This document shows, one piece after another, positions 14,401 to 54,354 of a stretch of 64,000 nt of DNA. The translations under genes and the position numbers were made by a program. How positions within the stretch are numbered: position 1 is the first letter of the stretch; each line of letters starts with the position of its first letter. Below the pieces are notes generated by a model. It saw only the letters and a program-made list of their open reading frames with translations. It was not told the origin of the DNA and ran no database searches. The stretch covers positions 4,050 through 68,049 of the forward strand of contig CANQGD010000003.1 of the NCBI GenBank assembly GCA_947601445.1, read 5' to 3'. This DNA comes from an uncultured Clostridia bacterium (GTDB lineage Bacteria; Bacillota; Clostridia; Christensenellales; CAG-314).

Positions 14401-17052
14401 ATGACGCAACAAAGAAAACTCAAACTTGCGTTGTCGCTGACGCTTATTGCGGCGCTTGCGCTTGCATTGGTTTTGCCTTTTGCAACATGCGTTACCGCAA
14501 ATGCGGCTCCGCCCGTTGTGCCCGACAAGGACACTTGGGTCAACACATACGACGGCACATATTATGACAATCTCAACACCGATTTGACGGGATCGGCGTT
14601 TCGCAGTGAATTGGCAAGGTTGATAGGCCCCACATCCGAGGGAGGTACCCATAAAACGCTCACTCGTTACGACGACCTGGGCGGGTATTACAAAAAGACT
14701 GATGTAGACCCCAAAAATTCCAACAATTTTATAATGTTTTATACCGGAACAAGCGTAAAATGGCCGGGTAATTTTTCGGGAGTAATAAACAGAGAACACG
14801 TGTGGCCCAAAGACGGTGGCAAAGCGTTTCCCGAAAAAACAGGTCCGGGCGGCGATTTACAGCATATTCGTCCCTGTGACAACAACCTTAACAGTACGAG
14901 GGGCAGCAAGTCTTACGACGAACTTACTCCGGGTTCTTCCGGCGTAAAAGTAGTTGCCGAAAATGGCAGTACAAGTTACGGCAAGGGCGAAGGACTCTGT
15001 TATACTAACAGCACGTTCTTCTATCCGGCTAAGGGTTATCGTGGTGCAACGGCGCGTATACTGTTCTATTTGCAAACGCGTTGGGGCGATGATTATAACC
15101 TGACTTTTGTGGATGGCTCCGGCAGCAATAAAACTATTGGTAAAATTTCCACTTTGCTTAAATGGCATATCGAAGAACCGCCCACAGATCAGGAAATTCT
15201 GCGCAACAATGAAGCGGCAAAAATTCAGGGCAACCGCAATCCCTTTATCGATCATCCCGAGTATGCTGAGATGATCTACTGCAACGACGGCAAAAGCTAC
15301 AACAATGCGCTCAACAACGTGGTGGCGCAGTACGGAAGTTATCTCGACAATTCAAATCCCACGGTACAGCCCGAGAGCATAACTCTTGCTCCCGCCTCGC
15401 TCGATCTTGTAAAGGGCAATTCGCAGACGGTTACCGCTACCGTATTGCCGGCAGGAGCTTCTCAAAAAGTCAATTGGAAAACGAACAACGATACCGTCGC
15501 GACGGTAAACAACGGCGTTGTGTACGCTGTGGGAAAAGGCAGCACGACGATTACCGTTACCAGCGCGGTAAATCCCGAAATAGAGACAACGCTCAACGTC
15601 ACGGTAAAGGAACCCGAGTTGCAGTCTTTGAGGATTTCACCCGACAGTCTTTCTCTCGTCGAGGGAGGATCATATCAATTGACGGTTATCGCTTCGCCTG
15701 CGGGAGCAAGCAATTCCGTCGAGTGGAGCAGCGATAAAGATGAAGTGGCGACGGTTAGCCCGATTGGGTTGGTTACGGCAGGAAGCAAAGGCAGCGCGAC
15801 AATAACCGCCACAAGCACGGTAAACAATTCCGTTAAAGCCACGATCAATGTCACCGTTACGGAGCAGGTAGCTCCTCCTCCGACTCTTGCCTCACTGACG
15901 ATCTCTCCCGACAGACTTTCTCTCACTCGGGGAGAAACGGCTCAATTGATGGTTACCGCTTCGCCGGCGGGCACAAGCAATTCCGTCACTTGGAAAAGTC
16001 AAAACGATGGAGTGGCAACCGTCGATCAAAGCGGATTGGTAAAAGCGGTGACGGCAGGTATCGCAACTATAACGGCGACAAGCACGGTAAACAGCAATAT
16101 AACCCAAAGTATAACGGTAACAGTCACCGAAAAAGTTGTTGTTCCGCCCACTCCCGAGCTGCAATATTTGACGATTTCACCCTCCGAGCTTACGTTCGGA
16201 CCGGGAGATACATGCCTGCTTACCGTTACCGCATTTCCTGCGGGTACAAGCAATTCCGTCACGTGGAAAAGCGGAAACATTCAGGTGGCGACTGTCAGTC
16301 CCGACGGATTGGTAAAAGCGGTGGCGGCAGGTACCGCAACTATAACGGCAACAAGCACGGTAAACGGCAGTATATCCGAAAGCATAACAGTAACGGTAAC
16401 TGCGGACACAGTCACTCCCGATCCCCCGGGACCCGACGAACCGCCGACGTTGCAGTCTTTGACAATATTGCCGAAAGATTCTGCTCTCACTTTGACGCAA
16501 GGAGACAGTTTCCTTCTTTCCGTTACCGCTTCGCCTGCGGGAGCGAGCAATTCCGTTACTTGGTCGAGCAGCGACAGTCAAGTGGCTGATGTGGATTCTC
16601 ACGGCAACGTAAGGGCAATCGGAGCGGGAACAGCCGTCATTACGGCAACAAGCAATGTAAACGCCTCTGTTTCTGCAAAGATACAGATCAATGTAAAATC
16701 TTCCGTACCCGACATACCCGACCCGCCCAAACCGGACGACCCCGAGGATGAAGGAGAGGACTTCAAAGCAGCTGTTGCCGCAATAGCAGGCAAAACGTCT
16801 CTTTCCGATAGATACGACGCTTTGTTGAAAGCAATCGAAGAATACAACAAACTAAGCGATGAAATCAAACAAACCGTTGCCGAGCAGTATTCGGTGTTGA
16901 ATGAGGAAATAGAACGGTACAACTCCGACATTCAGCTTTACAACAACGAATTTCAAGTCGCAACTGACTTTGCGTCGCAAATTGCGGCGGCGTCGGTAAC
17001 TGCCGTATTGTTGGCGGTAGCAGTAATAGTACTCAAACGTACGGGGAGATAG
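14401..17052 (+). CDS. Extracellular endonuclease-I-family nuclease fused to five Big_2 domains, with a C-terminal coiled region and TM anchor
   Basis: Signal peptide (LALSLTLIAALALALVLPFATCVTANA). Nuclease motifs REHVWPKDGG and DLQHIRPCDNNLNSTRGSKSY. Five ~85-aa repeats of the form ISP..L.L..G....L.V.A.PAG.SNSV.W.S....VATV...G.V.A...G.ATITATS. C-terminal hydrophobic segment AAASVTAVLLAVAVIVL. Confidence 0.8.
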   Translation: MTQQRKLKLALSLTLIAALALALVLPFATCVTANAAPPVVPDKDTWVNTYDGTYYDNLNTDLTGSAFRSELARLIGPTSEGGTHKTLTRYDDLGGYYKKTDVDPKNSNNFIMFYTGTSVKWPGNFSGVINREHVWPKDGGKAFPEKTGPGGDLQHIRPCDNNLNSTRGSKSYDELTPGSSGVKVVAENGSTSYGKGEGLCYTNSTFFYPAKGYRGATARILFYLQTRWGDDYNLTFVDGSGSNKTIGKISTLLKWHIEEPPTDQEILRNNEAAKIQGNRNPFIDHPEYAEMIYCNDGKSYNNALNNVVAQYGSYLDNSNPTVQPESITLAPASLDLVKGNSQTVTATVLPAGASQKVNWKTNNDTVATVNNGVVYAVGKGSTTITVTSAVNPEIETTLNVTVKEPELQSLRISPDSLSLVEGGSYQLTVIASPAGASNSVEWSSDKDEVATVSPIGLVTAGSKGSATITATSTVNNSVKATINVTVTEQVAPPPTLASLTISPDRLSLTRGETAQLMVTASPAGTSNSVTWKSQNDGVATVDQSGLVKAVTAGIATITATSTVNSNITQSITVTVTEKVVVPPTPELQYLTISPSELTFGPGDTCLLTVTAFPAGTSNSVTWKSGNIQVATVSPDGLVKAVAAGTATITATSTVNGSISESITVTVTADTVTPDPPGPDEPPTLQSLTILPKDSALTLTQGDSFLLSVTASPAGASNSVTWSSSDSQVADVDSHGNVRAIGAGTAVITATSNVNASVSAKIQINVKSSVPDIPDPPKPDDPEDEGEDFKAAVAAIAGKTSLSDRYDALLKAIEEYNKLSDEIKQTVAEQYSVLNEEIERYNSDIQLYNNEFQVATDFASQIAAASVTAVLLAVAVIVLKRTGR
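15370..16696 (+). repeat. Five tandem Big_2 (bacterial Ig-like) coding repeats
   Basis: Period about 255-270 nt. The repeats are conserved at the protein level, and repeats 2-5 also share short nucleotide stretches. Confidence 0.8.
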
Positions 17053-17056
17053 CGCA

Positions 17057-17647
17057 ATGAAAAAAACATTTTTTGTAATCATCACGCTCGTGCTTGCAAT
17101 GGTATGCTGCGTGGCTTGTACCGATCAAGGCGGATACAAGGCTATCGAAGAAGCCTTTGAAAAACAATATTCCAATGTGAATATAAACGTTACCGTCGCA
17201 AAAGACGGCGTAACGCTCAAAGGAGAGTACAAACTGAGTTTGTGGTATAACGGTAATCAAATTAGCTACGCCACGGTAGATTATTCTTACGATGAACTTA
17301 ACAAACTCAGTCTCGACGGAAACAACGGCGAAAGCTACATTACGGTAGTAAGCGGACAAAAAAAGGTGTCCGACGGCAAGTTGGATTCCGTTGAAATCAA
17401 CGGTATTCATCTCGACTACGGCGGATTCCGCTTTAAGACGGATTATTTTGAAAATGTCTATCTGTCCGAAACGGTATTCGAAACGGACGTCGTCGATGTA
17501 AAAAGTTTTGTCGGCAACGACGCGTTCGGAGGAACCGACATGCATGTCAGATTGACGTATTCTCCCGAACAGTTGGAAACGGTTTCTATAACCTACATCT
17601 CCGCAACCGGAGCCAAAGTATCCGTGAATTACAGCTTTACGCTGTAA
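17057..17647 (+). CDS. Small secreted protein or lipoprotein, unknown function
   Basis: N-terminal MKKTFFVIITLVLAMVCCVAC followed by a beta-rich 170-aa body. It starts 4 nt after the nuclease stop, so the two are co-transcribed. Confidence 0.6.
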   Translation: MKKTFFVIITLVLAMVCCVACTDQGGYKAIEEAFEKQYSNVNINVTVAKDGVTLKGEYKLSLWYNGNQISYATVDYSYDELNKLSLDGNNGESYITVVSGQKKVSDGKLDSVEINGIHLDYGGFRFKTDYFENVYLSETVFETDVVDVKSFVGNDAFGGTDMHVRLTYSPEQLETVSITYISATGAKVSVNYSFTL

Positions 17648-17663: not shown

Positions 17664-17694
17664 GCCGTCGGCAATGCCGACGGCTTTTTGTTTT
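17664..17694 (+). terminator. Rho-independent terminator after the nuclease-lipoprotein operon
   Basis: Stem gccgtcggc / gccgacggc followed by TTTTTGTTTT. Confidence 0.8.
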
Positions 17695-17744: not shown

Positions 17745-17830
17745 AAACAGAAAATTTACTTGAAATTTACTTGACGGTACTAAAATCCTCGTTAGAGTGA
17801 TATTTTGCGCGGATATTTTGCGCAAAAAAT
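17745..17830 (+). promoter_or_regulatory. Repeat-rich control region upstream of the giant gene
   Basis: Direct repeat aatttacttga x2 (about 17750..17776). Direct repeat gatattttgcgc x2 (17799..17810 and 17812..17823), the second extending into the 12-bp palindrome ttttgcgcaaaa. Confidence 0.4.
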
Positions 17831-17861: not shown

Positions 17862-20800
17862 ATGCCTAAATTCAAAATTGCATGTTTCATAGTCGCCGCC
17901 GTGCTTGCGGCAGTCGGAACCATTCTCGTCGTCAACAATCTCGGCGAAAAGAACATCGGCACATTTGTAAAGCCAACCGACGACCCGAATATCTATCTCG
18001 ACAAAACGGAAGATACAGTCATCACCGATACACAACGGGATGTGAGGGAATTTTTGTTTATTGCACACAAAGTCTTGCTTAGCGGAAGCGGTTTCAAGGG
18101 CGAATCAAGCGGTACGTCTACTGCGGTAGGTATGGCGCAGAACGTACTAAACACCCGTTATGTAACAGGTGAATTCGGCAATAAAAAAGTTCTCAAAGAA
18201 ATGGTAACCAAAGGTATAGTCAAAAACGCCTATCAACTGTACCTTGTGGGGGACAACTACATTTTCCGTCAGGCGATACGTGTAAACGACTTGCACGACG
18301 TGGATTGGAAAAGCGAGGCTCAACCCCTTTCGGAAAGCGCGTTTTACAGCGGCTTCGGTCACCGTTCCGACAAACTTACCGGATACATACTCAATTGGGA
18401 TACCGTTTTGGAAGGAAATTTTGTTAGCGAAGAAAACGGTTTGTACACTTTCCATTACGTGTTGGATACGGTAACGGCAACCACATATCTCCGTCGCGAA
18501 ATGATTACCAACGGCGATCTCGACGGCGAACCCACCTTTACCAAGTGCGAAATCTATGTAACGATGGATTCCGATTTCAACGTAAAGTCACTGCGCACCG
18601 ATTGCGCTTACAACGCAAAAACAAAGGGTATTCCCGCCTCCTGTACGGAGGACATCACCGAACGGTTCGAGTCTTTCGAAGGCGATTTGCCCGAAACGGA
18701 ATTTTTCACCCCGTTTCTCGGAAAAGAACCTGCGGGCAATCTCGACAAAGAGAGCAGCGCATTGGATATGCTTATGGAAATGTTCGCTCCCTATCTCAAC
18801 GGAGAGGACGAGCTTAAAGTTCGCTTGACGGTAAGCAACGAGGGCGAACAAATATCCGATATACTTGCTCACGTGGCAGGTCTGGAAGGCGTAATGGGCG
18901 GCGAAAACGGTGCGGATTTGTCGAAACTCGCCGTAAATCTGAAAATGGGCGACCTCAATGCGTGCTATCGTCATCAAACGGGAAAAATTCTGCTTAACTA
19001 TCGCGAATTTAACGGCAGCACAACGGTAAACGGAATAAAAGACTTTATCGCCGCGCTTTCCGCGGTTACGGGAGAAAATGAAATTTCTTCCGACGGTTTG
19101 ACTTCCCTGTTGGGAGATGACCCGACCGCGTTATTGGATAAAATGCAGGGTCCCGAATATTCCGAGGACAAGAGCGTTTGTACGGTCACTTTTGCACCTT
19201 TCGACGACGCGGATATATGCGCCCGTCTGGTCGGCATACGGCAAAACGACAAGTATATATTCGACAGCGCCGACATAGACATCGGCAACGTCGGTATTCA
19301 CATTGTTCCGCAAAGTTGGACACCCGTAGCTATAAAAGAGGATTCCTGCGAAATTTTGGGCTTGACGGATTTGCTCAAAAACGGAAAAATTTCTCTTAAC
19401 GCAGACGTCAAACTTCCCATTGCGGACAGAATGTATGACGTCAACGCCGACATACTTGTCGATTTGGCAAAACTTACTGCGGAAGCTCATGCGACGTTGG
19501 GTTCCAACGGCGACGTTGATGTTTACTATGTCGACAACATAGCTTACGTGGCTTTGGGAAATATCAAATTTAAGTTGGACGTTTCGCAAACGGACAAATT
19601 AAAGGATATTTTGACACAATTTACGCAAGACGGCTTGCTTCCCGATTCCGAAACGGTTCCGTCTGAGGATTTCGATCCGAAGAACATTTTGTCGTTGCTA
19701 AGCGGTTTCGAGGTGGCTGCGTCTCAAAACGGCGCCGTTCTGACCGTGAATGTCGGAGAAATGAAAGTTTGTCTAAACCTTGTCGAGCGTGCCGACCGCT
19801 GGAATGTGGAAAGTTGCACCGCACAGGGTTACGGAATAGACGCAACTATCATCCCCGCCGAAAATTATCGGGATATTCTTGTCCCCGCCGACGCGGATTT
19901 ATATGCCGACGTGACGGAGTTTGCAGATACGTTTGACGATCCGATCGCCGCATTGGTTCAGTCCGAAACGTACGGTGCGGATTTCTCGATGAACGCTAAT
20001 GTTGACGGTCACCTCTACAATATCAGCGGCAATGTCGTATCGGACGAAGAAAAAACGCTGAAAGTCGTCGCCGTTGTCTCCGAAAACAATGTCGGTATAT
20101 TAAATGCGGAAGTAATTTACGCAAACAACATTGTTTATCTTGCCGTAAACGGCATCAGAGCGGCATTTGCGGTAACGGAGCAAGGCGCGGACGGCGATAA
20201 AGTGGAGCAAGCCTTGCAAAATCTCCTCGCCGACGAGCAATTGAAACAATTGTTGGAGGGCAACGAACAAATAAGCGAAGCCGTTGCCGAAGTGGGCGGA
20301 ATTATACAAAAAGTAAAGCAATTCGATCCCGAAAGTCTTTGGGATGTGGATTTCACTACGGTAGTTACCCGTTTCCTGTTTGCCGACGGCACATTGTCGC
20401 TGACGGTTGACGGCAGTGCGTTCGGATTGGAAGGGGCGGAACTCTCCTGCGATTTGTCTGTAAAAGACGGCAATCTTGCCGTTGAAATACACGATTTGGA
20501 ATTGGCGGATATTCAGCTCGATTGCGCCGTTACGCTGCTTTCCGACATCGAGCGGATAACCGTTCCGTCCGCGGAGGACTACATACTTAATTTGCGCGGA
20601 GAAATAATGGGCGCACAGCTCGATATTTCGCTCGATCTTGTAAATATGGACATATGGTCATGTGTGCATTTCGGCAAGGAAGACGCATATTTCCGCTTTG
20701 TTGACGGCAAATTGCTGTTGCTGTTCGGCGGCGCGAGAGTGGCGGTGGATGTAGAAGATTTGTCCGCCGTTACGGATAAGGTTAAAACTCTTTTGGAAGA

Positions 20801-23800
20801 AACCGCGCCCGACGCGACGGACACAAAGCAAATTACCGATTTGTTGGCTATCGTTTCCGCATTGAGCGTAAACTTTACGGACGAACAACCCAATATTTCC
20901 TTTGACGGAGAAGGCTTGTCCGTGCGCGCAAACTTCACAAACAAGGACGGCAATCTGTTATTTGACAATTTAACGGTGAATTTCGTCGTCGGCGAGGAAA
21001 GTTACGAAGCAAAACTTACGCAGCAGACCGAACAGGCATACAGACTGCATTCCGATCTGTTATATATCGACGGCAACAGACTTATAGACGAAATTCTCGA
21101 CACCGTGATCGCCTTCAAAGACGCGAAAGGCTTTGCGATAAACGCAGAATTGAATTTGAATGTCAACGGAAACGCTTATATTGCCGAAATCGATCTCAAC
21201 CTCAACGGCGGAGTGTACGGCACATTGTCGTTGCGTGACGTTGAAAACGCGCCGCTTGTGTCCGCCGAGGTCTATTTCGTCGACGGAGTACTGTATTTCG
21301 ACATAAACGGAATACGTCAATCCGTTGATCTTTCTCAAACTCAACCGAACGCGAGCGACGTAAATTTGGCGGGTATTCTCGACGAAATGAGAGGCTCCAA
21401 CGAGTTGTTGGACAGCCTGTTGAAGGTGTTGGACAACCTTCCTTCCGATCCTCGCGAATTGGTATACTCCGAATTTATTTCCGATTTGTACCAAGACGAA
21501 ACTTCCCTTTACTTGCTGTCCGATCTTTCACAGCTCGATTTGGGCGATGTGGCGCTTGTATTCAAATTGGGTGCAAAACCCACCGTATCGATATACGGCT
21601 TGTCCGTCGGAGAAGTTTCAGCCAATGCAAAGATCGCACTGGACAAATCCTACCGTGCGGTAAAAGCGCCGCAGTCCGACTACACGACGGATATTTCCGT
21701 CAGCCTCGGCGAAGGTATCCGTGCGGGAGTACATCTCGATCTGTTCAACAAATCGGTATACGGAGAGTTGAATTTGTACAACAACGGTATTTTGTTCGAG
21801 TATCTGAACCGTGAGATATTCCTTCAATTCGGAAATATTTCCGCTAAACTTGCTGTGGATGACTTCGGCAAGTTGCTAGAAACGGTAAACAAATTTACGG
21901 GTGACTCCTCGGATAATCAACAAATTTCGGATGTGCTCAAACAGGCTCTCGGCAAATTGATATTCCAACGCACGGCAATCGACGGAGGTTATTGCGTAAA
22001 TATCGATATTTCGCAAGACGCGAGCGCCGCAGTATTCTTCCTTTGCGACGGCGACAAGGTCGCAATTGACAGTTTGAAGCTCAATCTCAGCGAAAGGGAA
22101 ATCGTATTGAGGTTTACCGATTCGGTCGATGTGCGGAGAGTGGATATGAACCGCACGTTTGTGGAATTAGCTCAACCGATCGACGCATTTGACGATCTCA
22201 TTGCCCGATTGATCTCGGCAAACAGCTACGGCGCAGCCTTCGAACTCAACGTAAAATTGGGCGGCAAACCCTACACGTTGAGAGGCAATTTCACATTGGA
22301 CGAATATCGCAATATACAGGTAAATGGCACCGTTTATGACGGAGAAACGGGCATTGTCGATCTGGATGTAATTGTTTCCGGCGACAAGGTGTTCCTCACC
22401 GTAAACGGCATAAAGGCGACGTTCAAGTTGGGCAAAAACGACGGTACCGGCGATATTGCTCAGACCTTTGAAAGCCTTATGGAAAACGAGCAAATAGCCG
22501 CGCTTTTGGAAGGGAACAGCGATATAGCCGATTTGATACGTCAAATAAAATCTGTTGCGGAAAACATAAGCAGTAAAAAGTTGTCCGAAGTCAACTTTGA
22601 AAAGCTGCTTGGCTCGCTCACGTATAATGTTGACGATTCCGGCGTAAAAACGCTCTCGTTGCAGATTGACGCAAGTGAATTTGATTTGGGTACGTTTGAT
22701 TTGGAACTTCGCAACGACGATGATATTCTTACCGTTGCCGTCAAAAACTTGAAATTGGGTAACATTCAAATAGACAGCGCGCAAGCGACTGTACAATCCG
22801 ACGTGTCTGCGATAGACGTGCCCGAAAAAGATTATCTGCTGAAACTTCATATCGCGGGAGAAGAATTGGGCATATCTGCGGACATCACTGCGAATTTGTA
22901 CTCCATGGATATTTGGGGAACGGTACAATACGTCAACAACGAAATAGACGGTTTGCCCGTCAATGAAACGCTGTCGCTGCGTTTTGTAAATAAAGAGTTG
23001 TATTTGAGTCTCAACAACATAAATCTCAAATTTAACGTCAACAAGTTGGGCGGACTTATCGACAGAGTGAAGAATCTTTTGAGCAAGGACGGCTCCTCCG
23101 ATATGAATCTCAACGAAATATTGTCGCACCTGCAATTCGATCTTGCGGGTGATCACAAACTCGTATATGAATCCGACGGAATGACCGTTTCGGTAAACTT
23201 CTCTCCCGACGCCGACAACAAACTTGTTTTCGACAACATTTCGGTGACGCTCGGCGGCAAAAAAATAGAGATAAACAACAATTGGAAGGCTCACGCGCAG
23301 CTTGACACGGACGGCAAATTTACGGTTGCAGACAATATGGCAGACAAATTGCTTGCCGTAGTCGAACGCTTTATAAACGCCGATCATTTCAACGTCGGCT
23401 TGACCGCGACAGTTTCGACGGGCGACCGCGAGTATACAGCCAATGTAAATATCAATTACAACAACGGAATTTGCGCTTCCGTCACATTGAGTGAGAAAGA
23501 TTTGTTGCTTGTTTGCGCAACAATAACGCTCAAAGATCACACGTTGTATATAGACGCTAACGGTATTCAACAAAAATTCGTCCTGCCCGAATCGTCGGCA
23601 AAGGAGGGCGACTTTGACGTTCAATCGTTGAAAGATATTCTTGACAAACTGTTTGGCATAAACGGTTTCATCGACGAAATAATGACAAATCTTGCCGATT
23701 TCGAAACCGTATCCGATTTGTTGACGAGTCTCGACATCAACGGCGACCTTCTTACTGCAACCGTTTCGGAAAAACTCGGTTTGGGAGCCATCCGAGTCAC

Positions 23801-26800
23801 ATTCGACGCAAACTCAACCAAGTTGAGTCTTTATGATTTGAAAATCGGTTCCGCATCCGTCGATTTCTCCGCCGAGTTAAAAGACAGCAACGGCGAAGTA
23901 ACGGTTCCCGACGGAGAATTTACAACAGAACTGCATCTCGATCTCGGCGAAATCGGCAGTGCGAGCGTAGAATTGGATTTGTTCAACAATCGCATTTACG
24001 GCTTGGCAAAGATATACGGCAACAACCTGACTTTCGAGTTCAACACGAAAAAGACAAAAGACGCATGCAACGTATTTATCATATTGGGCGACAGTACGAC
24101 AGGCGCCAAGTTGAAGTTCGATACGGACGATATCGGTTCTTTGATAGAACAATTGAGCAACTTCGGAGTAACCCTTCCCGAAATCGGCTCCGACGGAGAT
24201 ATTATAGATACGTTAAAGACGGTTTTGCAATCATGCAAAATCAAGCCTTTGGAAGAAGCGGAAGGATATGAGCTTACTTTGGAAATAAGCGGCGTAACCG
24301 TTAAAATCGAATTTACAAAGGAAACCGTTGAAGTCGAATCTGCAAAGGAAAAAGACATCGTCAAACTCGGTAACGTCAAAGTGAGCGTCAACGGATTTGA
24401 AATAACCGGTTCTTTGCAAAAAGACGCGGAGAATGTCGGTATCGAGGACATCAACTCCAATGAATATATTGACGTTATGAGTTTGCTTGAAAAATTTGCC
24501 GCTCCCATCGGCAAATTGATTGAAACGGAAACGGGAACATATCAAATAGACAATTTAAGCGGCACCGTAAAAATAGGCGATAACACATATTCCCTTTCCA
24601 ATGCGATCGTGAAATTCGATGTCAATGGCAATTTGTACATAAAGTTGGACCTTTCCTACAACGGGACGACTATGTTTGACGATCTGGAAATTTGGTTGAT
24701 AGACAAGAACCTTTACGTACAGGAAGGCGAATTGAAACTTGCTTTGCCTCTCAACGACTCCAAGTCAAGCGATACGTCATTGGACGAAATCAAAGATCAG
24801 CTCAAAGCTTTCAAAAACAAGATCGACGGGTTGGAACCCATTATCGATTGGATTCTTTCCGTATTGAACAAGGACCTTTTGTCTCTCGACTTCACAGAGA
24901 TGTTGAACAACTTGACCTTCGATGATTCGCTCGGCGTAACGATAAACGGCGCTCAGATAGGCTTGTCCGAATTTGGCTTGACGTTGAATACAACCGCTAA
25001 CGACGGCATAAGTCAGGACGGCATTAGTCTGCAAGTAAACGAAGGCAGTAAGATAATGGCGTACGACGCCGAACACAACGCAGTATTTGAAATTTACGGT
25101 CTTTACGCCGAAATATCGGACGGCAACGCCATAGAAAAACCGGGCGACGACTTCAAAACAAACCTCGTTGTAAAATTGGATGAAAGCAACACGTTGTATG
25201 CCGAAATCGACCTGTTCAACAAGGTGTTCAAAATGAAGATTGTCAGCACCGACGCCAATGGCAATCAAGTTACGCTCGATCTGTTGTATCAAGACGAAAC
25301 CAAAACTCTCAAAATCACCGATGGTACAAAACTGTACATTTCGGTGAACATCAACAGTATCGGCAGCATGATAAACGCCATCAACACGATAGTCAACGAA
25401 CAAGCCGGCAGCGATCCCAACTCGAAATTGCCCGGTTTGGATAAACTTGGCGACGGCTTGAATATTGACGAAATTCTGCGTTCGCTCGCCTTGTATCAGG
25501 ATCAAAATCAAGTAAAATTGAACCTCAAAGTACTTGGTTTGGATATGACGGTGAGCTTTGACAGCGGAACAATATCCGCACATGTTCCCGTCGTTGACGG
25601 TATCGAATTGAATATCGAATCGGGCGTTCTGCCCTCGAAAGACGGCACGCAGATGCAGTACGGAGAATTTCTTCCGGCAGATGACAACAAATATGTGCAC
25701 GTGGACGAAGTATTCAACGATTTCTACATTGGCAACGGCACGGATGATAATCCCGATGGACCGATTTACGAATTGGTTACCACCAACGCTTGGCGTTTCG
25801 ATTTCACGGGCAATGCCGATATCAGTATCGGCGGCAGTGGCGAGTACCGTATCGCAAATGGATCGTACTTTATATTCGCCTTCAACAAATCGGAAACGGA
25901 GTTCAGTCTAAAACAAATGTTGGATGCGTTGGGGAACAACAGCACCAAACAAGACGGCTATGACATGTTGTTTAAGTTGCTCAACACGTTGCAACTAAGG
26001 GCAAACCTTACCATTCAAAAGCAAGACGGCGCCGTTTACAAAGATATTATGTATTTGGATATCGCCTTGCTGAGATATGCGGGTGCGGACAACAAAGACG
26101 GTGCCAAGTCTCGTTTGTACATTCACTACGACACATGCAAGCCGATTCAGGCCGAAGACGGCACATATTCTCGTACGGGCGAACTCAACATAACGTTGAG
26201 TATAGACGCTTTGAAAAACGTTATCGGACTCAAAGACGCTTTGGACAAAGTCTTGGGCGGAATGATATCCAAGTTAGTCGACAACATCAATGGCGCCATT
26301 GCCGACTTGCAAAACAACAAATCCAAGTTACAAATCGGTACGCTTGCCAGCTTGTTTACGTCGGTCAGCTATGACGAAGAAATGAATTTCAAGTTGAAAT
26401 TGAACGGCAACACAATCAGCAAAAAGCTAGGTGAACTCAACCTTAGCGTCAGCGCCTATGGCGGCGCAGAAGGTGTGGGAGCCGCCAAACGTGGCAGAGG
26501 TCTCCAATTGAATGAATTTACATTCGGCAACGATGATTTCAGTATCAACTTGACCAATATAATTGTATCCGCCGCCACCTCTATTGAAATCAAGGACGAC
26601 GACGGCAAAGTGACGGGACATGACTACGACTACGTAATCTACGGCATCAACAGCTACCTGCAAGACCATGTCGCAAAGACGGGCAGTGTCGACGCTCCCA
26701 CTGTACTCAACCCCGAAGGCGCGCTCAGCACTATCGACAGCTTCAACAAGTCCAACGTGGCGGCTTGGGGTAGCGACAAGGGCTACAATATGAGCAACCA

Positions 26801-27914
26801 CATCAATTTGGACAGTATCTATCAATTGGCGGCGTCGTTGGTCATCACCGCGGGTAGAGACGACGGCAACGGTCACAGATCGTTCAAGATCGAAGGACCG
26901 TTGAAATTGAGCATTACCGTGCTTGGTTTTGAAGTAAAAGAGGTATCTATTCCGATACTGTTCTATGCCGATATAGACGAAAACGGCGACTCCTACTTCG
27001 CAGTGAAAATTCACAGAGATCGCGAGAGAGCGATGGGAGCTGATTTGTTCGGAGATCGTGGTGGCGACTCTTATTTGACGTTTACCACTAACGACGGAAA
27101 CGGCAAACCCGTATTCAATGTTTACAGAAACTCAAACAACAGTCACATTTGTCCTAAGTGTTCTTCCTTGGACAATTATACGGTAGTAGTAGAAGAAGGA
27201 GCATGGATTAAAACAAAGAATATATACAGAATATGCAAAAACAAAGCGTGTTCAAATTATGGGAAAGGGCAGAAAGTCACCACATGGAGCGATTGGTCAA
27301 CAACGGGCAAGATGGATTCGGAATATTTGAAGTCGGGAGAACCGGGTTTTAAGGACGAAGGTATTTCTCCTGCCGAATTTATGGCTAATTTGCTCGGAGG
27401 AGAGAGAAGCGAAAGAGGTTACCTGTTTGACCTACTCAATCTCGGCAGTATCGATGTGCCTTTGCTTACCAAAATCTGTTTGGATCAAACAATCAAAGAC
27501 GCCATGAATGACCCTACCAAGGAATTTGGTATTGAGGATGTGTTGGACACGGGTGAATCCTATAATTACGGAACTTCTTCTTCGGGCGATATGCAGTTTG
27601 AGATCATTGCAAATCTCTTGTCAATTTCCGACGGCTTGGGAACGCTCACTGTCAACATTCACCACTCGGGAGACTTCAACGACTTGTACAGTTACAATAG
27701 TGCAACGGATAAGTGGGAGTACGACGCCCAAAAGATTGCGGCAATCAATTTGTCGCGGCTGGAAGGTAACATCGGTTTGGCAAAAGGCTTTGTGCATATA
27801 GACTTCGATTTGCAACACACAACACCCGGATACGGTACCGCTTGGTACTTTAATTCCGACTTGAAGCAAATGTGGAAGAACCCCGAAGTTTGGGAAAAAG
27901 GCTACGCCGGCTGA
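17862..27914 (+). CDS. Giant (3350 aa) membrane-anchored modular repeat protein, family unknown
   Basis: A single uninterrupted ORF with an N-terminal TM (ACFIVAAVLAAVGTILVV). It contains at least 11 diverged ~190-aa modules carrying the motif VY(F/Y)VD(G/N)xLYLxxNGI(K/R)xxFxL, three ~750-aa super-repeats, and a C-terminal Cys4 element. Confidence 0.85.
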   Translation: MPKFKIACFIVAAVLAAVGTILVVNNLGEKNIGTFVKPTDDPNIYLDKTEDTVITDTQRDVREFLFIAHKVLLSGSGFKGESSGTSTAVGMAQNVLNTRYVTGEFGNKKVLKEMVTKGIVKNAYQLYLVGDNYIFRQAIRVNDLHDVDWKSEAQPLSESAFYSGFGHRSDKLTGYILNWDTVLEGNFVSEENGLYTFHYVLDTVTATTYLRREMITNGDLDGEPTFTKCEIYVTMDSDFNVKSLRTDCAYNAKTKGIPASCTEDITERFESFEGDLPETEFFTPFLGKEPAGNLDKESSALDMLMEMFAPYLNGEDELKVRLTVSNEGEQISDILAHVAGLEGVMGGENGADLSKLAVNLKMGDLNACYRHQTGKILLNYREFNGSTTVNGIKDFIAALSAVTGENEISSDGLTSLLGDDPTALLDKMQGPEYSEDKSVCTVTFAPFDDADICARLVGIRQNDKYIFDSADIDIGNVGIHIVPQSWTPVAIKEDSCEILGLTDLLKNGKISLNADVKLPIADRMYDVNADILVDLAKLTAEAHATLGSNGDVDVYYVDNIAYVALGNIKFKLDVSQTDKLKDILTQFTQDGLLPDSETVPSEDFDPKNILSLLSGFEVAASQNGAVLTVNVGEMKVCLNLVERADRWNVESCTAQGYGIDATIIPAENYRDILVPADADLYADVTEFADTFDDPIAALVQSETYGADFSMNANVDGHLYNISGNVVSDEEKTLKVVAVVSENNVGILNAEVIYANNIVYLAVNGIRAAFAVTEQGADGDKVEQALQNLLADEQLKQLLEGNEQISEAVAEVGGIIQKVKQFDPESLWDVDFTTVVTRFLFADGTLSLTVDGSAFGLEGAELSCDLSVKDGNLAVEIHDLELADIQLDCAVTLLSDIERITVPSAEDYILNLRGEIMGAQLDISLDLVNMDIWSCVHFGKEDAYFRFVDGKLLLLFGGARVAVDVEDLSAVTDKVKTLLEETAPDATDTKQITDLLAIVSALSVNFTDEQPNISFDGEGLSVRANFTNKDGNLLFDNLTVNFVVGEESYEAKLTQQTEQAYRLHSDLLYIDGNRLIDEILDTVIAFKDAKGFAINAELNLNVNGNAYIAEIDLNLNGGVYGTLSLRDVENAPLVSAEVYFVDGVLYFDINGIRQSVDLSQTQPNASDVNLAGILDEMRGSNELLDSLLKVLDNLPSDPRELVYSEFISDLYQDETSLYLLSDLSQLDLGDVALVFKLGAKPTVSIYGLSVGEVSANAKIALDKSYRAVKAPQSDYTTDISVSLGEGIRAGVHLDLFNKSVYGELNLYNNGILFEYLNREIFLQFGNISAKLAVDDFGKLLETVNKFTGDSSDNQQISDVLKQALGKLIFQRTAIDGGYCVNIDISQDASAAVFFLCDGDKVAIDSLKLNLSEREIVLRFTDSVDVRRVDMNRTFVELAQPIDAFDDLIARLISANSYGAAFELNVKLGGKPYTLRGNFTLDEYRNIQVNGTVYDGETGIVDLDVIVSGDKVFLTVNGIKATFKLGKNDGTGDIAQTFESLMENEQIAALLEGNSDIADLIRQIKSVAENISSKKLSEVNFEKLLGSLTYNVDDSGVKTLSLQIDASEFDLGTFDLELRNDDDILTVAVKNLKLGNIQIDSAQATVQSDVSAIDVPEKDYLLKLHIAGEELGISADITANLYSMDIWGTVQYVNNEIDGLPVNETLSLRFVNKELYLSLNNINLKFNVNKLGGLIDRVKNLLSKDGSSDMNLNEILSHLQFDLAGDHKLVYESDGMTVSVNFSPDADNKLVFDNISVTLGGKKIEINNNWKAHAQLDTDGKFTVADNMADKLLAVVERFINADHFNVGLTATVSTGDREYTANVNINYNNGICASVTLSEKDLLLVCATITLKDHTLYIDANGIQQKFVLPESSAKEGDFDVQSLKDILDKLFGINGFIDEIMTNLADFETVSDLLTSLDINGDLLTATVSEKLGLGAIRVTFDANSTKLSLYDLKIGSASVDFSAELKDSNGEVTVPDGEFTTELHLDLGEIGSASVELDLFNNRIYGLAKIYGNNLTFEFNTKKTKDACNVFIILGDSTTGAKLKFDTDDIGSLIEQLSNFGVTLPEIGSDGDIIDTLKTVLQSCKIKPLEEAEGYELTLEISGVTVKIEFTKETVEVESAKEKDIVKLGNVKVSVNGFEITGSLQKDAENVGIEDINSNEYIDVMSLLEKFAAPIGKLIETETGTYQIDNLSGTVKIGDNTYSLSNAIVKFDVNGNLYIKLDLSYNGTTMFDDLEIWLIDKNLYVQEGELKLALPLNDSKSSDTSLDEIKDQLKAFKNKIDGLEPIIDWILSVLNKDLLSLDFTEMLNNLTFDDSLGVTINGAQIGLSEFGLTLNTTANDGISQDGISLQVNEGSKIMAYDAEHNAVFEIYGLYAEISDGNAIEKPGDDFKTNLVVKLDESNTLYAEIDLFNKVFKMKIVSTDANGNQVTLDLLYQDETKTLKITDGTKLYISVNINSIGSMINAINTIVNEQAGSDPNSKLPGLDKLGDGLNIDEILRSLALYQDQNQVKLNLKVLGLDMTVSFDSGTISAHVPVVDGIELNIESGVLPSKDGTQMQYGEFLPADDNKYVHVDEVFNDFYIGNGTDDNPDGPIYELVTTNAWRFDFTGNADISIGGSGEYRIANGSYFIFAFNKSETEFSLKQMLDALGNNSTKQDGYDMLFKLLNTLQLRANLTIQKQDGAVYKDIMYLDIALLRYAGADNKDGAKSRLYIHYDTCKPIQAEDGTYSRTGELNITLSIDALKNVIGLKDALDKVLGGMISKLVDNINGAIADLQNNKSKLQIGTLASLFTSVSYDEEMNFKLKLNGNTISKKLGELNLSVSAYGGAEGVGAAKRGRGLQLNEFTFGNDDFSINLTNIIVSAATSIEIKDDDGKVTGHDYDYVIYGINSYLQDHVAKTGSVDAPTVLNPEGALSTIDSFNKSNVAAWGSDKGYNMSNHINLDSIYQLAASLVITAGRDDGNGHRSFKIEGPLKLSITVLGFEVKEVSIPILFYADIDENGDSYFAVKIHRDRERAMGADLFGDRGGDSYLTFTTNDGNGKPVFNVYRNSNNSHICPKCSSLDNYTVVVEEGAWIKTKNIYRICKNKACSNYGKGQKVTTWSDWSTTGKMDSEYLKSGEPGFKDEGISPAEFMANLLGGERSERGYLFDLLNLGSIDVPLLTKICLDQTIKDAMNDPTKEFGIEDVLDTGESYNYGTSSSGDMQFEIIANLLSISDGLGTLTVNIHHSGDFNDLYSYNSATDKWEYDAQKIAAINLSRLEGNIGLAKGFVHIDFDLQHTTPGYGTAWYFNSDLKQMWKNPEVWEKGYAG

Positions 27915-27933
27915 TCCGATACTAACAAAATCA

Positions 27934-27969
27934 AAGCGCCTGCTTGTTTGCAGGCGCTTTACTTTTGCG
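27934..27969 (+). terminator. Rho-independent terminator of the giant gene
   Basis: Stem aaagcgcctgc / gcaggcgcttt followed by a T-rich tail. Confidence 0.7.
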
Positions 27970-39244: not shown

Positions 39245-39937
39245 ATGAACAATAACAGTACAAAACAACCAAACAAATTTACAAGGTTTTTGCGCAACAA
39301 CATCGCATTGCTCTTGCTGATATTTTGTGTGTTGGCAATCACGGCGGTTGTGCTTGCGGTAACTCTCACAAGAAACGATACTCCCGTCATTCCCAACGAT
39401 CCCGTGGGCGGCAATCCCAATGACGATCAGCCGGGCAGCACACCTCCCGACGATAAACCCACGCAGCCCACTACGCAAAAGGTAGACGTATATTTTAACA
39501 GTCCGGTAAATTATTCGGAAATCGGCTTGGAATATACATTCGGACCGAGTAATTTGTTTACCTACAAATCCACTCTTAACGAATGGAGCGCGCACAAGGC
39601 GTTAGACCTCAAAGCAACCGAGGGCGCCGAAGTTACGGCAATGTACGACGGTACGGTGATAGAAACGGGCAAGAGCTTTTTGAAGGGCAACTATGTCGTA
39701 ATAGATCACGGTGAAGGAGTAATTGCCACTTATGCGTCGTTGGAGGACGTAGAAGTGACAAAAGGACAGTCTGTAACCCGCGATCAAACCATCGGCTACG
39801 TAAGTACCACTGCGGAGAGCGAATACAAGGAGGGTCCTCACCTTCACCTCGAAGTCACCGTTGACGGAGTAAATACGGACCCGACGCCGTATGCGGAAGG
39901 TAAAATATATCGTACTGTGGAAGTTACGGCGGAATAA
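39245..39937 (+). CDS. M23/LytM-family metallopeptidase with an N-terminal TM and Pro-rich linker
   Basis: TM ALLLLIFCVLAITAVVLAV. HKALD (HxxxD) and HLHLEV (HxH) zinc ligands are intact. Confidence 0.8.
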   Translation: MNNNSTKQPNKFTRFLRNNIALLLLIFCVLAITAVVLAVTLTRNDTPVIPNDPVGGNPNDDQPGSTPPDDKPTQPTTQKVDVYFNSPVNYSEIGLEYTFGPSNLFTYKSTLNEWSAHKALDLKATEGAEVTAMYDGTVIETGKSFLKGNYVVIDHGEGVIATYASLEDVEVTKGQSVTRDQTIGYVSTTAESEYKEGPHLHLEVTVDGVNTDPTPYAEGKIYRTVEVTAE

Positions 39938-40007
39938 ATTATTTACCGAAAATTCCCAAGAGCATAGAAAAATCAAATGCGGGTTTGTAGGTATAAAACA
40001 GCAAATG

Positions 40008-40037
40008 GCAGAAGATAGTCGTCTTCTGCTTTTTTTG
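40008..40037 (+). terminator. Rho-independent terminator
   Basis: Stem gcagaaga / tcttctgc followed by T7. Confidence 0.75.
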
Positions 40038-40107
40038 TAGACAAAAATTTGTTTCCTACTACAAAACATTGCAATAACCACCTTTCGAAGCGCGTTAAAA
40101 TGCGATA

Positions 40108-40893
40108 ATGAACGTGTACGTTGAATACGTAATTTTGGACAACTTTGTGTTGGATACGCTTTTATTGTGGGCGGCGGCATTGACGATAAAGATTCCCTGC
40201 AAAAAATGGCGCATTGCAATCGGCGGCGTGATAGGCGCGGCTTGCGCGGTAGTAAGCGTATATTTAAGCGGAGTTTGGCTGTATATCCTCAAAGCGGGTT
40301 GCCTGATTGCAATGTGTATGTCGGCGGTGGGGTTCGGAAAAAAACTTTTTTGGTATATTTTGCTCACCGTCACATATACATTTGTTGCGGGCGGCGCAAT
40401 TGTGGGGCTGTTCAACCTGTTCAAAATCGATTACTTTGACGGTGGCTTTTACAACATGCGTATCCCGCTGTTCGTATATGTCTCTGCGTTCGGCGTAACG
40501 TTTTTTTTGTGTTTCGCCATTGTCAACTTTGTCAGGCAAACAAAAAAAATTGCCCCTCATTTGATAAAAATCGTAGTCAAACTTGACAAAAGTTACTGTT
40601 TGACGGGTTTTTGCGACAGCGGCAACACTTTGAGTTACGAAGGACTTCCCGTCTGTTTTGTTACAAAAAAGTTCGGCGGATTTTCCGAATATTTTGCAAA
40701 ACAGCTGCTTGAAAACAGAACCGTACGTCTGCCCGTAACCACTGTCGCCGGGACGGTTGAAGTAAATGCAATTGCGGCGACGGTATCCGTCGGCGGGAAC
40801 GAACGCGCGACGTATCTTGCATTGCCTGTTGAAAAATGTCAAACGATATACAACGTTCTACTGAACAGTGAGTTTTGCGGAGGTGATTTATGA
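40108..40893 (+). CDS. spoIIGA: Sigma-E processing peptidase SpoIIGA
   Basis: Polytopic N-terminus (MNVYVEYVILDNFVLDTLLLW), aspartic-protease motif CDSGN, and translational coupling to sigE. Confidence 0.85.
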   Translation: MNVYVEYVILDNFVLDTLLLWAAALTIKIPCKKWRIAIGGVIGAACAVVSVYLSGVWLYILKAGCLIAMCMSAVGFGKKLFWYILLTVTYTFVAGGAIVGLFNLFKIDYFDGGFYNMRIPLFVYVSAFGVTFFLCFAIVNFVRQTKKIAPHLIKIVVKLDKSYCLTGFCDSGNTLSYEGLPVCFVTKKFGGFSEYFAKQLLENRTVRLPVTTVAGTVEVNAIAATVSVGGNERATYLALPVEKCQTIYNVLLNSEFCGGDL

Positions 40894-41594
40894 AATTGAT
40901 ACAACTGCTCAAAAAAATATTCGACAAACTTTTTTTGTCCGAAAAGGCGGTACATTATCTGTGCGGAACGGAAGCGCTGCCTCATCCGCTTTCCCCCGAG
41001 GAAGAAAGCGATTTGTTGGACAAAATTGCGCAAGGTGACAGTTTTGCCAAAGACAAATTGGTGGAACACAATTTGCGCTTGGTTGTTTTTCTTGCAAAAA
41101 AATTCGAAAGCAGCGGTCTGGACATGGAGGACCTTGTTTCCGTGGGGACTATCGGGCTGATCAAAGCCATAAACAGTTTCAAACGCGACAAACAGATAAA
41201 ACTTGCCACTTATGCCAGCAGATGTATAGAAAACGAAATATTGATGTATTTGCGCAAGTTGTCCAAGCGAAAAACGGAAGTGAGTCTGGATGAACCGCTC
41301 AATGTGGACGGCGAAGGCAATGAACTTTTGCTTGCGGACATTCTCGGTACCGACAGTGACGCTATCTACACTCATGTGGAAAACGAGGTGGAACGGCAAT
41401 TGTTGGAGGAGGGATTGTCTCGACTGAGCCGACGAGAACAGCAAATCATCGAAATGCGTTTCGGCTTGGACGGCGAGGACGAGCGCACGCAAAAGGAGGT
41501 TGCCGATTTGTTGGGAATTTCTCAAAGTTATATTTCCCGTTTGGAAAAGAAAATCATTTCCCGCTTAAAAAAGGAAATAGGAAAATTGGTGTAA
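40890..41594 (+). CDS. sigE: Sporulation sigma factor SigE (pro-sigma-E)
   Basis: Pro-sequence followed by GTEALPHPLSPEEE. Sigma-70 regions 2 and 4 are present (...TQKEVADLLGISQSYISRLEKK). Confidence 0.9.
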   Translation: MKLIQLLKKIFDKLFLSEKAVHYLCGTEALPHPLSPEEESDLLDKIAQGDSFAKDKLVEHNLRLVVFLAKKFESSGLDMEDLVSVGTIGLIKAINSFKRDKQIKLATYASRCIENEILMYLRKLSKRKTEVSLDEPLNVDGEGNELLLADILGTDSDAIYTHVENEVERQLLEEGLSRLSRREQQIIEMRFGLDGEDERTQKEVADLLGISQSYISRLEKKIISRLKKEIGKLV

Positions 41595-41761: not shown

Positions 41762-42033
41762 CAAAATACTGCGCGTTGCAGTTGACAATCAACGCCGAAA
41801 CGGTATTTCGGTAGGTGGCTACTCCAAAGCTACCTCGTGGCACACGCTCGAGCTGCTTAGTGCTGCTATGTCCCCATCCTGACACGGTTTACAGTGTCAC
41901 GTTGCACAAGACCTTGGTATCAACACTCCTTGCCGCCTCCTGCTTTCCACGCCGAAAGCCGCCTGCAACATTCAGCCTCACTGTAGCGGATTGTGAGTGA
42001 CAGGGCACCGCTGGCTCCCCGCTTAGCGCAGTA
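41762..42033 (-). ncRNA. ffs: Signal recognition particle RNA, long Bacillus type with Alu domain (scRNA)
   Basis: The minus strand carries the Alu-domain signature GCUAAGCGGGGAGCCAGCGGUGCCCUGU...CAAUCCGCU...GAAU. The helix-8 signature is GUCAGGAUG-GGGA-CAUAGCAGCACUAAG (compare B. subtilis GUCAGGUCCGGAAGGAAGCAGCAUUAAG). The 5' CUACUGCGC pairs with the 3' GCGCAGUA. It has its own promoter and terminator. Confidence 0.75.
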
Positions 42034-51629: not shown

Positions 51630-52502
51630 ATGCATATCAATAACGAATGGAAAGATTATCGCATAATGGCTACGGGCGACGGAGAAAAGTTGGAACGGTG
51701 GAAAGACGTCGTGCTGCTTCGTCCCGATCCGCAGGTAATTTGGCATACGAAAAAACCTTTTTCGGAAGTCGCCGTACCCGATGCGCGCTACATTCGTTCT
51801 TCGAGCGGCGGCGGATATTGGGAATACGACAAGCCCTTGCCCGACAGTTGGGTGGTGGGTTGGCGAAACTTGCGTTTTCGCGTGCGCCCGATGAATTTCA
51901 AGCATACGGGACTGTTCCCCGAACAAGCGGCAAATTGGGCTACGGTAATAGATTTGATTCAAGCTGCGGAGCGTCCTATAAACGTACTCAATCTTTTTGC
52001 TTATACCGGCGGAGCCACTGTGGCGTGTCTTTCTGCCGGGGCAAGCGTATGTCACGTGGACGCGGCAAAAAATATGGTGGAAATGGCAAAAGAGAACGTG
52101 GCGCTTTCCTCCCTTGCGGACAAACCCGTCCGCTACATTGTTGACGACTGCCGCAAATTTGTCAAGAGAGAAATACGCCGCGGCAATCGTTATGACGCAA
52201 TCATTTTGGACCCGCCGAGTTTCGGAAGAGGCGCGAGCGGAGAAGAATGGAAGTTGGAGAGAGACATATTCGATTTCCTCGTTTTGTGCGGCGAAGTTCT
52301 TTCCGACAATCCGCTTTTTGTATTGCTCAACAGCTATACAACGGGGCTTCAACCCGCCGTGCTTTCCAACTTGTTAAAGCTTACTTTCCCGGCAAGCGGC
52401 AGCGTAACGGCTTATGAAGTCTGTTTGCCTACCGATGAGGGAACCGTATTACCCTGCGGAGCAAGCGGTTTGTGGACGAATAAAGGAGTAAAATATGAGT
52501 AA
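51630..52502 (+). CDS. Class I SAM-dependent methyltransferase (RlmI/RlmK-like catalytic domain, no PUA)
   Basis: Motifs LNLFAYTGGATVA and IILDPPSFG. Confidence 0.7.
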   Translation: MHINNEWKDYRIMATGDGEKLERWKDVVLLRPDPQVIWHTKKPFSEVAVPDARYIRSSSGGGYWEYDKPLPDSWVVGWRNLRFRVRPMNFKHTGLFPEQAANWATVIDLIQAAERPINVLNLFAYTGGATVACLSAGASVCHVDAAKNMVEMAKENVALSSLADKPVRYIVDDCRKFVKREIRRGNRYDAIILDPPSFGRGASGEEWKLERDIFDFLVLCGEVLSDNPLFVLLNSYTTGLQPAVLSNLLKLTFPASGSVTAYEVCLPTDEGTVLPCGASGLWTNKGVKYE

Positions 52503-54249: not shown

Positions 54250-54278
54250 TTGACAATCCGAATAAATAAATGTAAAAT
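54250..54278 (+). promoter_or_regulatory. Sigma-A-type promoter of the surface-protein gene
   Basis: TTGACA, 17 nt, TAAAAT. Confidence 0.6.
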
Positions 54279-54354
54279 ATCCCTATATGCGGTGGAAGAC
54301 GCACGTTTTTTGTCGCGCACGAAAAGTTGGGCGCAAAAGCCCTTCGGAGGAACA

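Follow-up and report, generated by a model that had tools for sequence, protein, structure and literature searches.

The DNA analysed here is a 64,000 nt stretch (the window) covering positions 4,050 to 68,049 of contig CANQGD010000003.1 from an uncultured Clostridia bacterium [GenBank assembly GCA_947601445.1], and it includes one very long open reading frame (ORF), referred to here as the giant gene (Table 1). The ORF is intact, as had been reported in an earlier note made from the nucleotide sequence, and predicts a product with a calculated mass of 366.5 kDa and a pI of 4.37. The product is a 366-kDa extracytoplasmic protein whose N-terminus tethers it to the cytoplasmic membrane. The family to which it belongs is small and without database annotation, and the protein carries an array of tandem modules predicted, with moderate confidence only, to form open half-barrels like those of LolA and RseB.

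Genes of 10 kb that contain repeats carry a generic risk of misassembly in metagenomes. However, the chance that the giant gene is an assembly chimera, a collapsed repeat or a pseudogene is negligible. The frame is undisturbed over its full length, the G+C content (0.44-0.48) is the same as that of the flanks, and there are no DNA repeats to misassemble. Four independent full-length orthologues from other assemblies (P0005, P0006, P0007 and P0008; 3108-3412 aa) are collinear with aa 1-3338/3344 and share 33-39% identity with the window protein, which excludes chimerism and collapse to the extent that a comparison of sequences allows. The start, ATGCCnAA(A/G), which encodes Met-Pro-Lys, is kept in all orthologues.

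A hydropathy scan of the protein found one hydrophobic segment only (aa 4-24), in agreement with the single N-terminal transmembrane (TM) helix proposed previously. Because Lys residues precede this helix and an acidic stretch follows it, the predicted topology is N-in with the remainder of the chain outside. The anchor is a TM helix in most members of the family and a lipobox in P0013 and P0028, as well as in P0035 where it was identified by eye (FLGC). The exchange of the helix for a lipobox in some members indicates that the N-terminus serves only as a membrane tether on the outer face. Cys8 (17883-17885) lies at the cytoplasmic edge of the TM helix in the motif M-x-K-x-K-[IV]-x-C, which occurs in most family members including distant ones, and its context is not that of a lipobox. 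A motif scan found no LPXTG motif in the giant protein.

Self-BLAST searches with 250-aa fragments gave alignments offset by ~750 aa, with 24-31% identity and E values down to 2e-30. These include aa 751-980 aligned with aa 1503-1742 (31% identity, E=2e-30) and aa 1132-1345 aligned with aa 1883-2101 (E=8e-23), and weaker alignments were found at offsets of ~385 aa and ~195 aa. A hidden Markov model (HMM) of the module, iterated over the whole family, detected 13 modules that tile aa 312-2920 with E values from 3e-7 to 3e-40. Each is ~190 aa in size, long and short types alternate, and four modules make up a super-repeat of ~750 aa. The earlier note had described at least 11 modules, each centred on a strand-like motif, and three super-repeats. 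All 11 motifs and all three super-repeat starts were found again in the same positions and the tandem organisation stands, but the number of modules rises to 13 with the addition of aa 312-494 and aa 2706-2920. The first of these also shortens the unique N-terminal region, previously put at ~550 aa, to approximately aa 40-311, here called the N-domain. A relationship between the N-domain and the modules was considered, but an hhalign probability of 0.1 gives no support for it at the level of sequence.

At the DNA level, the longest direct repeat within the ORF is 47 nt at 72% identity. The only notable tandem repeat in the gene, at 24296-24351, consists of a 27-nt unit present 2.1 times with 86% matches and is trivial in extent. 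The lack of long nucleotide identities noted before is thus borne out, and the absence of DNA-level repeats, together with clear repetition in the protein, indicates that the repeats are old and maintained at the protein level, as had been argued.

Table 1. Features of the giant gene and its surroundings, with positions numbered from the first nucleotide of the window.
Feature	Position	Strand	Details
Secreted Endonuclease_1 nuclease gene	14401-17052	+	Five Big_2 domains; upstream neighbour
Lipoprotein gene	17057-17647	+	196 aa; lipobox CVAC; starts 4 nt past nuclease gene
Terminator-like hairpin and T-run	17664..17684	+	Ends upstream nuclease/lipoprotein unit; from sequence
Direct repeat TTTAC-N6-TTTAC	17755..17770	+	11-bp period, -35 region; conserved in orthologues
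-10 hexamer TAAAAT	17781..17786	+	10 nt past second TTTAC; TAnAAT in orthologues
Hairpin in 5'-untranslated region	17803..17827	+	TTTTGCGC ... GCGCAAAA; from reading of the sequence
Giant gene ORF	17862..27914	+	Uninterrupted; 10,053 nt, 3350 aa
N-terminal signal-anchor TM helix	17871..17933	+	aa 4-24; lipobox instead in some homologues
Membrane-proximal N-domain	17979..18794	+	~aa 40-311; most conserved part of the family
Module 1, divergent	18795..19343	+	aa 312-494; module HMM E=1.7e-10
Module 2	19377..19916	+	aa 506-685; module HMM and model
Module 3, start of super-repeat 1	19959..20585	+	aa 700-908; self-BLAST, module HMM and model
Module 4, short type	20586..21074	+	aa 909-1071; module HMM and model
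Module 5	21120..21707	+	aa 1087-1282; module HMM and model
Module 6, short type	21711..22208	+	aa 1284-1449; module HMM
Module 7, start of super-repeat 2	22215..22838	+	aa 1452-1659; self-BLAST and module HMM
Module 8, short type	22839..23366	+	aa 1660-1835; module HMM
Module 9	23376..23945	+	aa 1839-2028; module HMM
Module 10, short type	23952..24476	+	aa 2031-2205; module HMM
Module 11, start of terminal super-repeat	24531..25142	+	aa 2224-2427; family-conserved; module HMM and model
Module 12, short type	25143..25658	+	aa 2428-2599; module HMM and model
Module 13	25977..26621	+	aa 2706-2920; module HMM E=5.6e-18
C-terminal region	26622..27911	+	aa 2921-3350; family-conserved, mixed beta/alpha
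Cys-rich insertion	27141..27341	+	~aa 3094-3160; CxxC ... C ... C/H, zinc-ribbon-like; pLDDT <50
Terminator-like hairpin	27933..27960	+	Directly after stop codon; from sequence
Sporulation cluster	39245-41594		M23 peptidase (possibly SpoIIQ-like), SpoIIGA (Peptidase_U4), sigma-70-family factor

When 1.84 billion cluster representatives were searched exhaustively with HMMER, 36 relatives were recovered, most of them 1400-3412 aa long. Word-indexed searches, made with the N- and C-terminal parts of the protein and with a profile of 14 sequences, found five fragments only, and the exact giant protein is absent from the gene index that was queried. In the plan common to the relatives, the membrane anchor is followed by the conserved N-domain and the module array, and both the terminal super-repeat and the C-terminal region are conserved. 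In an alignment of 14 diverse members, ~26 positions of the N-domain are invariant, and the N-terminal 500 residues of these members are 28-56% identical to those of the window protein. The number of modules in complete members is 5, 7, 9 or 13, so that length changes by two or four modules at a time, and the family thus combines conserved ends with a variable middle. All titled genome assemblies in which relatives were found are metagenome-assembled genomes (MAGs) of uncultured Clostridia or Clostridiales from the gut, several belonging to rabbit ('Lapin') gut series, and no relatives were detected in viral contigs (IMG/VR). The family is confined to a narrow clade. A phage origin was rejected, as the protein has no PHROGs match, there are no IMG/VR relatives and the flanks are housekeeping genes.

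The giant protein had been described as having no recognisable family, and this holds. It has no match in Pfam or NCBIfam at E<=1 and none in PHROGs at E<=0.01, and no significant match was found among PDB sequences. Six relatives have no Pfam match at E<=0.1, and comparison of PDB sequences with profiles of the N-domain and of the module gave only noise (coiled coils and GFP). Adhesins are frequent among the giant acidic repeat proteins of gut Firmicutes, and a BspA-type surface protein is encoded in the window. The giant protein might accordingly belong to a described adhesin, S-layer, toxin or phage-fibre repeat family and have diverged until the relationship is hidden. This is very unlikely given that these profile searches were empty for the protein and its relatives, that LPXTG and viral relatives are absent, and that no Ig-like, beta-helix or fibre fold matched above a probability of ~0.2 in the PDB or, with the C-terminal model, in BFVD. 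The adhesin and S-layer (SLH, Big, Cna, FN3, cadherin-like), RHS/YD, NRPS/PKS and toxin signatures that the earlier note had not seen are likewise missing from the Pfam and NCBIfam results.

Structures were predicted with AlphaFold2 and family alignments for two segments, aa 1-1200 and aa 2151-3350, with a mean predicted local distance difference test score (pLDDT) of 78.1 and a predicted template modelling score (pTM) of 0.49 for the first, and values of 72.0 and 0.63 for the second. The N-domain, where pLDDT is mostly 85-96, is modelled as one helix and ~12 antiparallel strands with two inserted helices. Each modelled module consists of a helix, six antiparallel strands, one to four amphipathic helices and five further strands (6+5 by DSSP), and the strand motif followed by an acidic Leu-rich helix that had been recognised in the sequence corresponds to strands 5-6 and the inserted helices. 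For 1200-aa segments with several domains these pTM values seem high, and they hint that the modules pack against one another in an ordered way.

The model of aa 1-1200 was compared with the PDB using Foldseek, where the best 50 matches were listed and each match is assigned to the 1200-aa model as a whole. Among the matches listed, a probability of ~1.0 was reached only by RseB, LolA (from H. pylori, E. coli and Ehrlichia), the ependymin-like EPD-BCP1 and the S. aureus protein SAOUHSC_02783 (4egd). RseB is the top confident match with ~400 aligned columns. ApoB100, vitellogenin, MTP and LptD, which are large beta-sheet proteins that bind lipids, were matched with probabilities of 0.1-0.2 only. 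In LolA, helix alpha1 is followed by six strands, the lid helices alpha2/alpha3 and five strands, and the order of elements in the modelled modules is the same. LolA is an incomplete beta-barrel with a hydrophobic cavity beneath a helical lid, and its lid helix alpha2 is located at residues 89-95 (PMC9457489). Members of the LolA-like (PLLLF) superfamily have near-zero sequence identity to one another (10.1101/2025.01.13.632879), and on the basis of the models the giant protein most resembles this superfamily and may be a very distant member of it.

The likeness to LolA/LolB (SSF89392) extends to a predicted half-barrel of ~11 strands per unit of ~180-200 aa with helices after strand 6 in the lid position. 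However, the LolA and LolB proteins of diderms have one domain each and are soluble or lipid-anchored, whereas 13 modules and the N-domain are combined here in one anchored chain that has no LolA/LolB profile match, has TM-scores of 0.4-0.5 and comes from a presumed monoderm host without a Lol pathway. RseB/MucB provides the best confident fold match, again with no MucB_RseB or LolA_like profile match. GerS of C. difficile offers a parallel from a clostridial spore-former, with a LolA-like fold but no similarity to the LolA sequence, and it uses this fold for protein-protein interaction (10.1101/2025.01.13.632879). It differs in being a small lipoprotein that forms a strand-swapped dimer and partners the amidase CwlD, whereas no amidase gene is linked to the giant gene. 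The mycobacterial glycolipid carriers LppX, LprG and LprF are likewise membrane-tethered (lipid-anchored) LolA-like domains, which move hydrophobic components of the envelope outwards through a thick wall, but they are single-domain proteins of ~230 aa, share no sequence match with the giant protein and were not among the fold matches listed.

An elongated beta-rich bridge comparable to AsmA/TamB-type proteins had been suggested for this protein. It is giant, TM-anchored, modular and beta-rich, as had been described, but kinship with AsmA/TamB is not supported. No profile match to AsmA, AsmA_2, TamB/DUF490, DUF748 or Chorein_N was found in Pfam or NCBIfam, and no structures of the AsmA/TamB/VPS13/ATG2 type were among the 50 best Foldseek matches listed, in which the confident matches are separate open half-barrels with a helical lid. 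The features shared with AsmA/TamB/YhdP and the eukaryotic bridge-like proteins are an N-terminal anchor (the hallmark TM helix is present at aa 4-24), a very long beta-rich body in which helices periodically separate blocks of 5-6 strands, and conservation of the C-terminal region. The differences, apart from the lack of profile matches, are the regular helices within the modules, a module number that ranges from 5 to 13 among homologues and so counts against a bridge of fixed span, and the absence of any outer membrane or Omp85 partner known in the host.

The C-terminal region ends in the conserved motif ..P.YG.A......W. When the model of aa 2151-3350 was compared with the PDB and BFVD, no confident match was obtained for this region, and the matches were mostly beta-propeller and fibre noise at a probability of <=0.23. 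In BFVD, 0.23 was the best probability except for one local match over 146 columns (probability 0.66, E=0.1). The Cys-rich insertion in this region is absent from some members of the family and minimal in most, and P0017, P0020, P0032 and P0038 have many CxxC pairs.

Upstream of the giant gene, an 11-bp direct repeat takes the place of a -35 element (Table 1). This TTTAC-N6-TTTAC box is invariant in the window and in eight orthologous MAG loci (L003-L010), where it lies ~90-120 nt upstream of the gene. It is also found ahead of the distant members P0020 and P0017 (L012 at -119 and L019 at -141), both with only ~30-35% identity in the N-terminal 500 residues. In full, the promoter has the form (G/A)TTTAC-N6-TTTAC, then 10 nt (9 in one distant member), then TAnAAT. 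The exact box occurs twice in the 64-kb window, and the copy ahead of the giant gene is the one that lies in a promoter region, the second copy being at 52488-52503 on the minus strand. There is none upstream of the nuclease gene and no other exact intergenic copy in the window. Activators of the OmpR/PhoB type classically use a direct repeat of 11 bp that stands in for the -35 element at a distance of 10 bp from the -10 element, and the TTTAC half-site is one that we take to be like the PhoP and WalR boxes. The box thus has the appearance of a site for an OmpR/PhoB-family (PhoP/WalR-like) response regulator. In the HAN104 and HAN105 MAGs, genes for an OmpR-type two-component system are located two genes upstream of the giant gene.

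Downstream of the promoter, in the region aligned with 17790-17830 of the window, the orthologues (L003-L010) have a hairpin of different sequence in the same place as that in the window, after a conserved AAAGTGAA-TATTATGCC block, and no Rfam family was detected in the hairpin region. The hairpin may be a leader that stabilises the 10-kb transcript. As terminator-like hairpins flank the gene on both sides, the giant gene is its own transcription unit.

The gene order in close relatives is serine dehydratase, an optional two-component system, a secreted Endonuclease_1/Big_2 nuclease, a lipoprotein of ~200 aa, the giant gene and nusG-rplK. The nuclease and lipoprotein genes are found directly upstream in close relatives only, with 39-41% identity between the lipoproteins, and the lipoprotein in the window has no Pfam or PHROGs family. 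An operon that joins these two genes with the giant gene was rejected, because synteny limited to close relatives points to shared ancestry and not to partnership. The possibility that the lipoprotein is a free module also has no support (3.8 bits with the module HMM). Distant members are found next to MinD/M50, LeuRS, DegV or AraC regulator genes, and no partner gene is conserved across the subfamilies. The flanks in the window are composed of housekeeping genes. The giant gene is a native gene that stands alone and has been inherited vertically.

In the sporulation cluster of the window, the sigma-70-family factor gene directly after SpoIIGA is presumably sigE, and genes for SpoIIE and M50 peptidases lie near the loci in the genomes of relatives. 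The spoIIGA-sigE and M23 genes in the window, along with these genes of the relatives, identify the host as an endospore former. The giant protein could be a sporulation envelope factor, SsdC (YdcC)-like in design, that acts in the forespore intermembrane space or cortex or at the spore surface, although we consider this quite unlikely. B. subtilis SsdC has the same start, with a short tail, a TM helix (aa 7-25) and an extracytoplasmic RseB-like domain, also in a spore-former (PMC7769602), and in monoderm spore-formers LolA-like proteins have roles in sporulation or germination that they exert through protein contacts (10.1101/2025.01.13.632879). RseB, moreover, is the top confident fold match. 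On the other hand, SsdC is a sigma-E-controlled protein of 338 aa that contains a single RseB-like unit, while the giant protein has ten times this length and a promoter that does not resemble those used by sigma-E. Judged by the consensus sequences of the sigma factors, the promoter combines a sigma-A-type -10 element (TAnAAT) with the activator box and includes no recognisable sigma-E, -K, -F or -G elements. Similarity to the LolA_like and MucB_RseB profiles is also lacking, and the family is confined to its narrow clade and not spread among spore-formers.

Several other features were recorded in the window and at one related locus. The BspA-type protein is a leucine-rich-repeat (LRR_5) protein of 694 aa, encoded at 110-2194 (+), and is likely to be another surface protein. 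The bacterial large signal recognition particle RNA (RF01854, 143 bits) is at 41769-42031 (-). Neither the 577-aa product of 43321-45054 (+), which has a weak sub-threshold tetraspanin match and is encoded beside a LemA gene, nor the 574-aa product of 54250-55974 (+) has a confident Pfam family. At L017, a filamentous-phage-like block upstream of P0026 (1111-6572) includes a weak Zot match, a REP_ORF2-G2P replication protein and Flg_new, and probably represents an inovirus that has integrated there and has no connection with the giant gene.

We tentatively favour the interpretation that the giant protein forms a semi-rigid filament of LolA-like modules that spans the wall and presents the conserved C-terminal head. 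The filament is preferred because the number of modules varies 2.6-fold and the distal Cys-rich loop is hypervariable, and because the pTM values hint at packing between modules and no transporter or acceptor gene is linked. A stalk that is exposed at the surface and bears a head would be in keeping with the wide variation in length, the hypervariable Cys-rich insertion and the acidic composition. In this arrangement, semi-rigid packing of the modules, as suggested by the models, would produce a filament that runs from the membrane through the thick wall, with the 13-module versions reaching well past it. A rough estimate, which was not computed, would put its length at tens of nanometres. The modules would be mainly spacer beads whose count (5, 7, 9 or 13) sets the reach, and the head with its hypervariable Cys-rich loop would be held at or above the cell surface. 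Transcription would depend on a response regulator of the OmpR/PhoB type acting at the box that replaces the -35 element. The ORF, its repeats, the family, the domain plan, the predicted secondary structure and the fold matches come directly from the analyses, whereas we infer the topology, the filament geometry, the role in surface presentation and the regulator. Giant stalk proteins are known from Gram-positive bacteria, among them Ebh of S. aureus, one of the megadalton-class, membrane-anchored, highly repetitive rods with variable copy number. Ebh is not a homologue of the giant protein, as it is based on helical repeats instead of alpha/beta half-barrel modules and is anchored at its C-terminus instead of its N-terminus.

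A number of observations weigh against the filament. The most conserved part of the protein is the membrane-proximal N-domain and not the distal head, so cargo loading or partner binding at the membrane fits at least as well as a passive stalk. Searches of the PDB and BFVD revealed no recognisable adhesin-type binding domain in the C-terminal head. The LolA-like matches are moderate, with target-normalised TM-scores of 0.33-0.52 and a root-mean-square deviation of 7-17 A, and as each match is assigned to the whole model, the LolA likeness may be carried by the N-domain, the modules or both. Profiles for LolA, LolA_like, MucB_RseB, LppX_LprAFG and DUF4367 gave no match among the Pfam and NCBIfam searches (E<=1). 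In addition, the monoderm envelope is presumed solely because the MAGs are titled 'Clostridia' and the window contains sporulation genes.

The N-domain and the fold matches bring in the main alternative explanation, in which the protein is a relay or holder for hydrophobic cargo, with the N-domain loading cargo that the serial LolA-like cavities pass on or store. It could take the form of a bucket brigade or a fused groove, a monoderm counterpart of Lol, Lpt, TamB or LprG, and candidate cargoes are lipids, lipoprotein acyl chains, lipoteichoic-acid or glycolipid precursors, and lipids scavenged from the host or its diet. We regard this as possible but rather doubtful. Proteins with LolA-like folds typically carry lipids or lipoproteins. 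All confident fold matches named above as LolA, RseB and EPD-BCP1 are hydrophobic-ligand carriers or sensors, the weak matches to ApoB100, vitellogenin, MTP and LptD point in the same direction, and the amphipathic Leu-rich helices occupy the position of the LolA lid. The anchor with its highly conserved membrane-proximal domain also resembles TamB, LptC and SsdC, and DegV fatty-acid-binding genes near two distant members add a weak indication. However, in spore-forming Firmicutes the LolA-like proteins GerS and SsdC have the role of binding proteins and not of carrying lipids (10.1101/2025.01.13.632879). The 2.6-fold range in module number (5-13) is unlike that of bridges of fixed span, and no transporter gene is linked. 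We also know of no acceptor membrane in vegetative monoderm cells.

Known LolA-like proteins are carriers or regulators with a single such domain, and in metagenomes giant orphan surface proteins are no rarity. The databases and papers searched gave no description of LolA-like modules in a tandem array, and we regard the giant protein as representing a new architecture in a new, sequence-orphan family. Its placement indicates that giant genes without sequence relatives of known function can be assigned by structure prediction when an exhaustive profile search provides a few dozen relatives. The family also offers a defined target in uncultured gut Clostridia of rabbit and other samples, comprising the invariant N-domain residues, the variable module count, the Cys-rich loop and the regulator box. 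It is unlikely that this clade of monoderm, spore-forming gut Clostridia uses chains of 5-13 LolA-like half-barrels, with tunable length and a two-component switch, as a conduit or store for hydrophobic cargo across the envelope, but if it does, the conduit would be a third route beside shuttles (LolA, LprG) and grooves or tunnels (Lpt, TamB/YhdP, MCE, VPS13). To our knowledge, little is understood of the movement of lipids beyond the membrane in monoderm bacteria. Should the modules bind hydrophobic ligands, the family would reveal how monoderms enclosed by a wall move or capture lipids past the membrane, and if they are purely structural, it would represent a new building block for very long surface filaments.

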